Origin: Minisyncoccota bacterium | Lineage (GTDB): Bacteria; Patescibacteriota; Minisyncoccia; Phycocordibacterales; UBA9973 | Assembly: GCA_041657445.1 (NCBI GenBank) | Contig: JBBABV010000001.1 | Coordinates: 36,783-100,782, forward strand | Direction: 5' to 3' | DNA: 64,000 nucleotides | Shown: one piece after another, positions 59,257 through 62,854 of the stretch | How the letters are laid out: each line of letters starts with the position of its first letter | Numbering within the stretch: position 1 is the first letter of the stretch | The notes under the pieces: generated by a model | Databases searched by the model: none | What the model was told of the DNA's origin: nothing | Seen by the model: the letters and a program-made list of their open reading frames with translations, nothing else | Made by a program: the position numbers and the translations under genes

Positions 59257-59340
59257 GCCGGAGTGGCGAAATTGGTAACCGCAAACGACTCAAAATCGTT
59301 CGGGGGCAACCCCTTGAGAGTTCAAGTCTCTCCTCCGGCA
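59257..59340 (+). tRNA. tRNA-Leu (anticodon CAA), class II with long variable arm
   Basis: Acceptor stem GCCGGAG/CUCCGGC with discriminator A, D-loop with GG, anticodon stem-loop AACGA-CU-CAA-AA-UCGUU, a long variable arm, T-loop GUUCAAGUC, and no encoded CCA. Confidence 0.85.
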
Positions 59341-59563
59341 CTGTTAGAATAATTTTACTCTAAAATATAAGTGAAATTATTAAATATGATACTGAATAAA
59401 ATAAAAACCCTTGTAAGGCAGATTCAATACTGAAATGTAATACTAGTAGGGATAAAAGAGATTTATCAAAAATACTATTAATTTTTATAAATTAAAATTA
59501 TTCATTTATTCACTACCATATTGATAAAATTTGGTAATTAGTTTTCCACAGCCCACTTGCATT

Positions 59564-59579
59564 ATATCATATATGATAT
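59564..59579. promoter_or_regulatory. Perfect 16-bp palindrome ATATCATATATGATAT upstream of the HTH-murA ORF (putative operator)
   Basis: Self-complementary 16-mer ending 12 nt before the ATG at 59592, embedded in the direct repeats TATATCATAT x2. Confidence 0.4.
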
Positions 59580-59591
59580 ATCATATTAGGC

Positions 59592-61106
59592 ATGGAAAAA
59601 ACGACATCAAAACAAATAGGTGCATATATTAAAAAATTAAGAGAAAGAAAAGATATTACTCAAGGAAAATTAGCTAAACTCCTTGCTACCTCTCAAAGTG
59701 CCGTTGCTAGGATGGAGAAAGGTGAACAAAACTTCACTACCGACATTCTAAAGAAGATTGGTAAGATTCTCGGAGAGAATATAATATCCGTAAACACCTC
59801 TCTTGATTTTGAGATAAATGGAGGAAAAAAGTTAAGTGGAGAGATTACTACAGGCTACTCAAAAAATGGCTCTGTTGGTCTTCTCTGTGCTTCCCTTCTT
59901 AATAAGGGAATCACTACTCTCCACGGTATAGCACGAATTGAAGAGGTATATAGAGTAATAGAGATATTAGAGAGTATCGGTGCAAATGTAGAATGGATTG
60001 AGAAGAATTCAGTAAGAATCACCCCACCAAAAACTTTTAATATGCGAAATATCAATAGAGAATCCGCTATCAAGACTCGCTCTATCATAATGTTCATTGG
60101 TCCACTAATTCATTTTCTAAACAATTTTTACCTTCCTCATGCTGAAGGATGTAAATTAGGAAAGAGAACCATTAGTGCTCACAAATATGCACTAGAAGAG
60201 CTAGGGGTAAATATTAAGACTACAAACAATAGATACATTGTGTCAACTTCTGAGTTAAGACCAGGAAAAATAGTAATGTATGAATCAGGAGACACTGCTT
60301 GTGAAAATGCTTTAATGACTTCAGCTAGAATTGAAGGGAAAACAATCATTGAATGTGCAAGTGGAAACTACATGGTGCAAGAAATGTGCTTTTTCCTTGA
60401 AAAACTTGGGGTAAGGATTGAAGGGATCGGCACAGGCACTCTTATAATCCACGGAGTGAAAGACATAAATCTTAATGTAGAGTATTCAAACAGTGAAGAC
60501 CCTATTGAATCAATGATGTTCATCTCTACTGCTATAGCTACTGATTCCAAGTTGACTATTAAAAAATGCCCAATTGATTTTCTAACTCTTGAACTATATA
60601 AACTTAAAACAATGGGATTAAAGTATAAAGTGCTTGATAGATATTTTTCAAATAATGGTAAAACTAAACTCATTGATATAGAAATAAGACCAAGTAGATT
60701 AATTGCACCTGAAGATAAAATTCATGCGAATCCATATCCAGGCATAAATATAGACAATCTTCCATTCTTTGGCCCTATTGCGATTAAAGCAAAAGGCACT
60801 ACTTTAATTCATGATTGGTTCTATGAAAACAGAGCTATATACTTCACTGAATTAAATCGTCTTGGTGCAAATGTTACACTTCTTGATCCACACAGAGTAT
60901 ATATAAATGGAGGAACAAAACTTAAAGGAGCACAGATAGTCTGCCCTCCTGCTTTAAGACCTTCAATGGTAATACTAATCTGTATGCTTGCCTCTGAAGG
61001 TACATCTGTATTACGAAATGTATATATGATAAATAGAGGGTATGAAGAAATAGCAGAGAGATTGAATAGCATAGGAACAGATATAAAAGTGATGAACGGT
61101 ATTTAA
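59592..61106 (+). CDS. murA: XRE-family HTH domain fused to UDP-N-acetylglucosamine 1-carboxyvinyltransferase (MurA)
   Basis: Residues 1-65 form a Cro/C1-type HTH (IGAYIKKLRERKDITQGKLAKLLATSQSAVARMEKGEQNFT). From about residue 75 the protein is a full-length MurA/EPT fold (INGGKKLSGEI...KNGSV, active-site loop AEGCKLGKR with the Cys). There is no stop or start codon between the two parts. Confidence 0.75.
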   Translation: MEKTTSKQIGAYIKKLRERKDITQGKLAKLLATSQSAVARMEKGEQNFTTDILKKIGKILGENIISVNTSLDFEINGGKKLSGEITTGYSKNGSVGLLCASLLNKGITTLHGIARIEEVYRVIEILESIGANVEWIEKNSVRITPPKTFNMRNINRESAIKTRSIIMFIGPLIHFLNNFYLPHAEGCKLGKRTISAHKYALEELGVNIKTTNNRYIVSTSELRPGKIVMYESGDTACENALMTSARIEGKTIIECASGNYMVQEMCFFLEKLGVRIEGIGTGTLIIHGVKDINLNVEYSNSEDPIESMMFISTAIATDSKLTIKKCPIDFLTLELYKLKTMGLKYKVLDRYFSNNGKTKLIDIEIRPSRLIAPEDKIHANPYPGINIDNLPFFGPIAIKAKGTTLIHDWFYENRAIYFTELNRLGANVTLLDPHRVYINGGTKLKGAQIVCPPALRPSMVILICMLASEGTSVLRNVYMINRGYEEIAERLNSIGTDIKVMNGI

Positions 61107-61990: not shown

Positions 61991-62854
61991 TTATTGACTA
62001 TTTTCCCTTTTCCTTACAAAGAATTTTTTAGAGAAGTTCTTTCCCATTATTTCATCAATTGCATCAGTAAAAGAGTCATCAGTAAAATCATCCCCTTTAA
62101 ACATACTACAGAAAAATGCTTCTTTCACATAATGAGGTGAAAAATTAGTTTTTTCTGCTATTTGTAGAATAAGATAATCAAGATACTCAATGTTCAAATC
62201 ATAATAAGATTGATTCTTGATTATTTCCAACAATTTTTTATCAAGGAATTGATATTTTATATATTCCGTGAAAATTTCTTCAGCAAATTTTTCTGTAACA
62301 GCTTCGTTTAAAAAATCAATACAATTCATTTCATTACTACTACAGAGAGTATCATTACCATCCTCTACTTTATTAGCAATAAAATAATCAACCCTAAATC
62401 CAGTTTTAATTCTTTCCATAAATAAATTGTTTTCTTCAATCCTGACATGTTTTTGATGAGAAAGTGCATGAGTCTCTTCATGGCAAGCAACACGAAGCAC
62501 AGATAATTTAAACAATTTATTATTCAATGATTGATCTAAAATTTTATTAGTATTAATTAAAATATTTTTTGTATATATATTATATAATCCCAATGGAGCT
62601 TCTTTACCTTTTATTTCCCCTATTAGAAGTCCTGTTTTAAAGTTCTCACCCTTAAAATCTTTTACATACTTTTTTATTCTATTAATAAAAATTCTTTTTA
62701 ATAATTTGTAGTCAATACTTTCTAATGCTTCTTTAAGAAGTGAGGACTTTTCGTATATAAGTCCTTTAATGTGATCTATGTGCTCCCTTTCAACAAGATT
62801 ATCTTTTAACTCACTTATATTACCTCCATTATGAATTTTGAAATGTTCCCTCAT
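61991..62854 (-). CDS. Hypothetical protein with zincin-like HEXXH motif
   Basis: 287 aa containing VACHEETHALSHQKH. No other recognisable domain. Confidence 0.4.
   Translation of the reverse strand: MREHFKIHNGGNISELKDNLVEREHIDHIKGLIYEKSSLLKEALESIDYKLLKRIFINRIKKYVKDFKGENFKTGLLIGEIKGKEAPLGLYNIYTKNILINTNKILDQSLNNKLFKLSVLRVACHEETHALSHQKHVRIEENNLFMERIKTGFRVDYFIANKVEDGNDTLCSSNEMNCIDFLNEAVTEKFAEEIFTEYIKYQFLDKKLLEIIKNQSYYDLNIEYLDYLILQIAEKTNFSPHYVKEAFFCSMFKGDDFTDDSFTDAIDEIMGKNFSKKFFVRKRENSQ

Follow-up and report, generated by a model that had tools for sequence, protein, structure and literature searches.

The window analysed here, a stretch of 64,000 nucleotides (nt) with about 31% G+C, carries a gene in which a helix-turn-helix (HTH) domain of the XRE type and the peptidoglycan enzyme MurA (UDP-N-acetylglucosamine enolpyruvyl transferase) are encoded as one protein. 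This open reading frame (ORF), HTH-murA, occupies positions 59592-61106 of the + strand (stop codon included), begins with ATG and encodes 504 amino acids (aa); it is supported by the ORF call, Pfam, NCBIfam, database homologues and an AlphaFold2 model, and an 18-base-pair (bp) palindrome lies just before its start codon. A preliminary description of this DNA had proposed that one continuous ORF joins an XRE HTH to a full MurA, and Pfam indeed finds both domains within 59592-61106. The same description let the feature begin at 59341, which is instead the 3' end of a tRNA gene.

The fused gene and its two domains

The preliminary assignment of the first 65 or so residues to a Cro/C1-type HTH holds. 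Pfam HTH_3 matches aa 13-62 above its cut-off (E 9.7e-10), with profile scores of 38.8 bits for PF01381 (cut-off 23) and 31.6 bits for PF13560 (cut-off 27). In the AlphaFold2 model (mean predicted local distance difference test, pLDDT, 90.8; predicted template modelling score, pTM, 0.83) the HTH is a separate four-helix unit with helices at residues 2-19, 24-31, 35-42 and 50-60, and the modelled bundle together with the Pfam HTH_3 and HTH_31 matches places the domain at aa 8-63 (59613..59780, + strand). Its recognition helix, SQSAVARM, is assigned from the model and from homologue conservation to aa 35-42 (59694-59717, + strand). No segment is more conserved than this helix among homologues of 28-100% identity, in which the motif TSQSA..R.E.G.QN is almost invariant. 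The nearest solved HTH structures, C.BclI, PezA, HigA and CylR2, are dimeric repressors acting on palindromic operators. A short flexible linker follows (aa 61-70; 59772..59801, + strand), recognised by its low pLDDT between HTH and MurA, about 56 over aa 61-70 and below 50 over aa 66-69.

MurA homology begins at aa 67-73. Pfam EPSP_synthase (PF00275) covers aa 76-491 with positions 2-417 of its 417-position profile (E 6.7e-39), and solved MurA structures align end to end with the enzyme half, which gives a complete MurA domain at 59808..61094 (aa 73-501, + strand). Foldseek comparisons with these structures return TM-scores of 0.88-0.94 over about 440 columns, and none of the solved MurA structures so matched carries an N-terminal HTH. 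Among the NCBIfam models, the C-terminal 430 aa score 304.5 bits against subfamily NF006873 (cut-off 297) and 293.9 bits against the equivalog TIGR01072 (cut-off 392.7); since the latter score lies under its cut-off, this is a divergent MurA.

To read the active site we aligned the protein with an Escherichia coli MurA sequence, to which the window protein is about 29% identical and on which all nine active-site residues landed on their textbook numbers. In E. coli numbering these are K22, N23, R91, C115 (or Asp), R120, D305, R331, R371 and R397. K22, N23, R91, C115 and R120 correspond to K91, N92, R163, C187 and R192 of HTH-MurA, and D305, R331, R371 and R397 correspond to D388, R414, R456 and R482; the catalytic Cys, C187, is encoded by TGT at 60150-60152. 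None of the nine varies in an alignment of 89 fusions of 52-79% identity. The earlier claim of a complete enolpyruvyl transferase with its active-site Cys loop is thus borne out by the full-length PF00275 match and by nine of nine residues, and, judged by its residues, the enzyme half looks intact as a catalytically competent MurA.

Is the fusion real? At the junction, aa 60-80 (LGENIISVNTSLDFEINGGKKLSGE), there is no Met codon and no stop, just as the preliminary description had it. A frameshift, a lost stop or a chimeric assembly could have joined a separate HTH gene to murA, but we reject a sequencing or assembly artefact, whose probability we regard as negligible: the identical 504-aa protein is found on at least three independent assemblies (ENA, Logan and NCBI/JGI), thousands of homologues have the same architecture with the junction residues S70, D72 and F73 invariant, and GTDB genomes from many studies hold the fusion. 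Of the best 120 matches among 5.8 billion proteins, 119 carry both domains, being about 500 aa long with HTH_3 plus EPSP_synthase and 70-79% identical. A scan of GTDB with one genome per species matched at least 600 stretches, among them loci of several hundred species, with at least 538 confirmed as relatives, and a search seeded with distant members led to further fusions from sources named Paceibacterota, Liptonbacteria, Doudnabacteria and others. Close relatives are either fused or wholly without the HTH, which answers the objection that the HTH might always be a separate gene. The preliminary description had also known of no equivalent fusion. This stands for the literature we searched, in which the HTH-MurA fusion, its operator, shared control of murB and pseudoenzyme derivatives are all undescribed, but not for the databases, where the fusion is not rare and thousands of entries are annotated merely as MurA.

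The upstream neighbour of HTH-murA is tRNA-Leu(CAA) at 59257-59341, and a check of the 250-nt gap upstream of the gene for riboswitches and known RNAs returned this tRNA only. Downstream lies miaA; relA/spoT and parB (- strand) are also nearby, and alr and ddl, both on the - strand, come just past the immediate neighbours. The 64-kilobase (kb) window holds no second murA and no murB. Directly 3' of miaA is a 287-aa ORF without a Pfam match (61991-62854, - strand), which keeps the same position on two independent contigs (L214 and L215).

The palindrome, the promoter and their conservation

The perfect 16-bp palindrome that had been reported 12 nt before the ATG is there: ATATCATATATGATAT, self-complementary, at 59564-59579. 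It is contained in a perfect palindrome of 18 bp, TATATCATATATGATATA, at 59563..59580, which conservation across loci leads us to propose as the operator. Around it we find a -35-like hexamer, TTGCAT (59557..59562, + strand), and a -10 hexamer, TATCAT (59579..59584, + strand), the latter 7 nt before the ATG and at the place where relatives have TATAAT, TATACT or TAAAAT. The -35 assignment in the window rests on cross-locus comparison, TTGCAT aligning with the TTGCA[AT] of orthologous promoters. The palindrome takes up all of the 16-nt spacer between them and extends over the first 2 nt of TATCAT.

Taken by itself the palindrome is not significant, as the count of such sequences is at chance level in this AT-rich window; its significance therefore comes only from conservation across genomes. 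We aligned the upstream DNA of 76 GTDB orthologues, two of which have no more than about 35 nt before the start codon, and searched it for the operator pattern TAT[AC]TCATATATGA[GT]ATA with up to two mismatches. The pattern stands upstream of HTH-murA, at a fixed promoter position, in all 74 loci with readable upstream DNA, and, overlapping shifted copies aside, it is the sole such site in the roughly 7 kb of each locus. Columns of the palindrome are at least 90% identical, as against 40-60% in the flanking intergenic columns, and the block conserved within the otherwise diverged intergenic DNA reads TATTGCAATTATATCATATATGATATATAAT. In the promoter of the relatives the palindrome fills the 16-17 nt between TTGCA[AT] and the -10 hexamer, which is TATAAT in 25 loci, TATACT in 19 and TAAAAT in 12. 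Among 75 loci there are 54 in which the first in-frame ATG comes 6-10 nt after this hexamer, and a single one of the 54 has a Shine-Dalgarno-like motif; because of this closeness and the missing motif we predict that the murA mRNA is probably leaderless or nearly so. Four loci (L006, L010, L014 and L032) have an insert of about 105-131 nt between the -10 hexamer and the ATG, bounded by inverted repeats TCCCGTAG...CTAACGGGA, possibly a small mobile element or a structured leader.

The operator is also present upstream of distant fusions of about 55-60% identity. In L086, a distant intact fusion, it reads CATATCATATATGATATA; L087 and L088 have two sites each; in L089, which is richer in G+C, it reads TATATCATGCGTGATATA, with the arms retained and the centre altered. 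In L213, where the recognition helix is TTQSAIARIERG, the operator is ATAGCATATATGCTAT, a symmetric change in both half-sites. Among the GTDB loci the variants of the operator sort with the helix: SA[VI][AV] helices go with AT in 34 loci, AG in 9, CT in 3 and CG in none, while SS[IV]P helices go with AT in none, AG in 17, CT in 2 and CG in 10, counts which, as with our other comparative statistics, ignore phylogeny. By this comparison, changes in the helix go along with changes in the operator.

Four close relatives (L068, L075, L079 and L080) have no HTH. Their MurA part is 72-79% identical to that of the window protein and their gene order is the same, namely relA, parB, tRNA-Leu, murA, miaA, and the operator is absent from all of the roughly 7 kb of each locus. 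As far as these comparisons go, the operator follows the HTH and not murA as such, and the HTH is dispensable for the enzyme. In these four loci the distance from tRNA-Leu to the start of murA is about 10-75 nt and contains no promoter that we recognise; murA may be co-transcribed with the tRNA.

Within the window a single site has two or fewer mismatches to the operator, the operator itself. Looser near-matches number 7 where 2.0 are expected, and none is convincing save the operator. A regulon inside the window is accordingly rejected, there being one site in 64 kb and, in relatives, no further site except overlapping shifted copies; from the distribution of sites, regulation looks local. 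A second perfect palindrome of 16 bp, ATATGATATATCATAT (59571..59586), overlaps the first and supplies a third ATATCA half-site at 59578-59583. It exists because the -10 hexamer here is TATCAT, and it is not conserved, relatives showing versions with two or three mismatches in a few loci only; it is probably incidental.

Antitoxins, pathway genes and pseudoenzymes

The 18-mer is not exclusive to HTH-murA. A metagenome scan for the exact sequence returned 120 stretches, in about 25 of which it flanks this type of HTH, in 16 genes for Gp49 (HigB-like) toxins and in 8 murB, and an exclusive association with HTH-murA is rejected accordingly. In the Gp49/XRE cassettes (metagenome contigs L133 1535-2211, L154 5157-5555, L157, L172 and L091) the -35 and -10 elements flank the identical 18-mer, the promoter is compact and the start codon comes a few nt past the -10, all as in HTH-murA, and over 57 aa the antitoxin HTH shares 49% of its residues with the MurA HTH. 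Type II XRE antitoxins autorepress via palindromes in their own promoters. Two families that share only the HTH carry the same site in their own promoters, and no other indirect evidence for recognition of the site by the HTH is as strong. The similarity of sequence and layout points to a common origin of the Gp49/XRE module and the module that HTH, operator and promoter form in murA, and cross-talk between the two is possible. The differences are equally plain. HigA-like antitoxins have a toxin partner, whereas HTH-murA has none adjoining it or elsewhere in the window, where we found no Gp49/HigB homologue (tblastn, E up to 1) and no second HTH of this type. The antitoxin HTH is joined to a toxin-neutralising segment and that of HTH-MurA to an enzyme, and the genes regulated would be murA and murB rather than a toxin gene.

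In 37 of the 74 loci murB (Pfam MurB_C plus FAD_binding_4) diverges from HTH-murA with its start within 120 nt of the palindrome. The left operator arm read backwards is TATAAT, and the ATG of murB lies a few nt beyond, so one operator could, from this layout, cover two back-to-back -10 elements, one for murA and one for murB. The murB of these divergent loci looks leaderless too. In two distant loci, L086 3855-4862 (from a source named Liptonbacteria) and L213 2829-3842, the divergent neighbour is mreB and not murB. A few loci have genes between the operator and murA, namely NUDIX plus nucleotidyltransferase, a histidine phosphatase, or an AAA_33 kinase. The last is a 191-aa P-loop kinase standing between operator and HTH-murA at L023 2292-2867 and L072 710-1288, with sub-threshold matches only to Zeta_toxin (E 0.0035-0.011). 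Zeta/PezT toxins act on UDP-N-acetylglucosamine (UDP-GlcNAc), the substrate of MurA. Beside this weak Zeta_toxin resemblance we note that PezA is among the closest solved HTHs.

A DnaA-box-like 9-mer forms a further element of the upstream region. In the window it is TTTTCCACA at 59542..59550 (+ strand), which agrees with TTATCCACA at 8 of 9 positions and stands 6 nt before the -35 element. Of the 74 loci, 45 have such a 9-mer (one mismatch to TTATCCACA or none) in the 70 nt that precede the operator, where chance would give 0.025 per 70 nt, and its orientation never varies. Exact copies near the operator number 11 (0.0006 expected per 70 nt); the element is seen at L087 and L088 as well. Where murB diverges, the 9-mer lies within its first codons (..YVDI..). 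Judging from its position, the 9-mer may link murA/murB expression to DnaA or bind another factor. A replication origin beside HTH-murA was considered and rejected: DnaA-box-like sites are not enriched in the window (26 against 22.6 expected, not significant), and the GC skew tracks gene strand.

What becomes of the HTH when the enzyme is lost? About 11 of the HTH-bearing homologues that we collected have lost the equivalents of C115, R120, R91 and R397, and R371 has become His. This pseudoenzyme branch keeps the helix motif, TSQSA[VI]ARIE.G.QN, almost unchanged. In three of three independent contexts the pseudoenzyme gene and a stand-alone murA without HTH point away from each other; murB comes after that murA, and ddl and/or a Mur ligase gene come 3' of the pseudoenzyme gene itself; in L083 three Mur ligase genes also follow murA-murB. 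The palindrome sits in the divergent gap between the pseudoenzyme gene and murA-murB in all three loci, as TATATCATATATGATATT in L081 (8598-11477), TATATCATACATGATATA in L083 (4275-11518) and TATAACTTATATGTTATA, a symmetric variant, in L084 (8619-11536). Identity between the stand-alone murA and the HTH-bearing gene beside it is no more than 21-24%, which speaks for a different MurA lineage and against a recent duplicate; a second lineage would therefore have taken over catalysis, the fusion keeping a regulatory role only. From their sequences and settings the pseudoenzyme paralogues look like regulators of the mur cluster, and selection evidently preserves the function of HTH and operator even after catalysis has gone. 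With a recognition helix that is nearly invariant and kept in a catalytically dead branch, the HTH is, on the comparative evidence, under strong selection.

Proposed autoregulation and its alternatives

We propose that HTH-MurA is an active MurA whose HTH binds the 18-bp palindrome in its own promoter and thereby represses its own gene, a reading that we hold to be probably correct. The idea that the palindrome is an operator for autoregulation was already contained in the preliminary description, and it is strengthened by a site that is fixed in 74 of 74 loci, varies with the helix and is shared with antitoxin promoters. In our model the HTH, on its short flexible linker, would bind the 18-bp palindrome in the spacer of its own sigma-70-type promoter. 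The operator would span roughly -30 to -10 of a near-consensus, optimally spaced promoter, and two HTHs, one for each TATATCA half-site, would exclude RNA polymerase, so that MurA would repress its own leaderless transcript; in relatives with a divergent murB the same operator would repress murB too. DNA binding by HTH-MurA, dimeric occupancy, the sign of regulation and the leaderless start we infer from the comparisons given above.

A number of observations weigh against this proposal. MurA is classically monomeric, and the AlphaFold2 model has no dimer interface that would present two HTHs to the palindrome. In the window TTGCAT agrees with TTGACA at 3 of 6 positions, and because of this poor fit a consensus promoter scan made no call here; the 3 perfect 16-bp palindromes of the window compare with an average of 2.8, and at most 8, in first-order Markov simulations. 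Of the 120 stretches with the 18-mer, some two thirds are not beside a recognisable HTH of this type, and in some genomes the site could actually be bound by a cognate antitoxin of the same specificity. Loci L210-L212, with Asn in the recognition helix, retain only the right half-site. One contiguous deletion could explain each HTH-less locus, which makes the joint absence of HTH and operator weak evidence, and to these points the neglect of phylogeny in the helix-operator counts must be added.

The sign of regulation is not fixed by sequence data, and HTH-MurA might bind the palindrome and stimulate transcription, or switch with its ligand state, as an activator or dual regulator. An operator in the spacer is also what MerR-type activators use. 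We nevertheless regard this as unlikely, because MerR-type activation needs an over-long spacer of 19-20 bp, whereas the spacer here is optimal at 16-17 bp and, with a -10 of TATAAT, TATACT or TAAAAT and a -35 of TTGCA[AT], the promoter should work unaided; moreover, the homologous HTHs of antitoxins and C-proteins mainly repress at such sites. Could the palindrome instead be read mainly by some other protein, such as a HigA-like antitoxin, with the MurA HTH a mere passenger of a captured promoter and 5' coding region? The same 18-mer and a 49% identical HTH in Gp49/XRE cassettes, a module that looks acquired as a single unit, and the viability of HTH-less relatives would all fit. A passenger would decay, however, yet the recognition helix is the most conserved part of the protein and outlives the catalytic site in the pseudoenzymes, helix and operator vary together, and the 64-kb window has neither a Gp49 toxin nor a second HTH of this type, so that we find this explanation quite unlikely.

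The HTH might, finally, have nothing to do with DNA. RodZ, another peptidoglycan-pathway protein with an XRE-superfamily HTH, uses it to bind MreB, and by this precedent the HTH of HTH-MurA could be a protein adaptor that docks MurA on the cytoskeleton or the cell-wall machinery, the palindrome being a mere promoter feature; the two distant loci in which mreB is the divergent neighbour would suit such a role. The RodZ HTH belongs to another Pfam family, though, and is followed by a transmembrane segment, while a search of HTH-MurA up to E 0.01 brings up no RodZ-type HTH_25, and there is no transmembrane segment or membrane anchor, MurA following directly after the HTH. Two conserved arms around a variable centre are, besides, the signature of a dimeric DNA-binder, and the operator accompanies the HTH into toxin-antitoxin cassettes that are unconnected to MreB. 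We therefore consider an adaptor role very improbable. The RodZ HTH is discussed in PMC9804626.

In HTH-MurA a single chain joins MurA to a putative DNA-binding domain with, as predicted from sequence, an operator in its own or its pathway's promoter, and this is the architecture of a trigger enzyme. Enzyme-repressor fusions and XRE autorepression are known in kind. BirA (a biotin ligase with a winged HTH), PutA (a proline dehydrogenase with a ribbon-helix-helix domain) and NadR (an HTH with nicotinamide mononucleotide adenylyltransferase) likewise combine enzyme and DNA-binding domain, have operators in their own or their pathway's promoters and let the enzyme report pathway status to transcription, as we propose here. 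HTH-MurA differs from them in that both its DNA-binding domain and its enzyme fold are unrelated to theirs, in that it targets the first committed step of peptidoglycan synthesis, and in having a pseudoenzyme branch. From canonical MurA (E. coli, Enterobacter cloacae, and MurAA/MurAB of Firmicutes), with which it shares the full two-domain fold, the Cys115 loop and the ligand residues, it differs by the extra 70 aa of N-terminal HTH and linker. The control of MurA known so far is post-translational, consisting of feedback by UDP-N-acetylmuramic acid (UDP-MurNAc) and, in Firmicutes, proteolysis by ClpCP.

How might the enzyme half then speak to the HTH? By analogy with such enzymes one may speculate that the ligand state of the MurA domain, UDP-GlcNAc with phosphoenolpyruvate (PEP) or else UDP-MurNAc, alters DNA binding. 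Solved MurAs among our structure matches include tight UDP-MurNAc/PEP complexes (e.g. 3swd and 3su9), and a UDP-MurNAc complex would, again speculatively, make a natural signal for DNA binding. Taken further, HTH-MurA could be a metabolite-gated transcription factor, in which the open-to-closed movement of MurA, or UDP-MurNAc, governs how the HTHs pair or reach the DNA, so that the precursor pool sets murA/murB transcription. This extension we put forward only tentatively, as a possibility that may well turn out wrong. Were it correct, the pseudoenzyme regulators would respond to these ligands too and govern entire mur operons, HTH-MurA would be the first known transcription factor that senses cytoplasmic cell-wall precursors through an enzyme fold, the Patescibacteria would gain one of their rare worked-out regulatory circuits, and the DnaA-box-like element may tie that circuit to replication.

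More generally, a MurA with its own operator-binding domain would, if our proposal is right, be a new and very direct form of control over the committed step of cell-wall synthesis. The loci together suggest an evolutionary series in which the HTH and operator of a toxin-antitoxin system were captured by an enzyme, gave rise to a bifunctional enzyme-regulator and, in some lineages, ended as a dead regulator beside a murA-murB operon. The host group, the Patescibacteria (candidate phyla radiation), has small genomes with few regulators and a gene regulation that is almost unstudied. The predicted 18-bp operator and its natural variants make the hypothesis testable without growing the organism.

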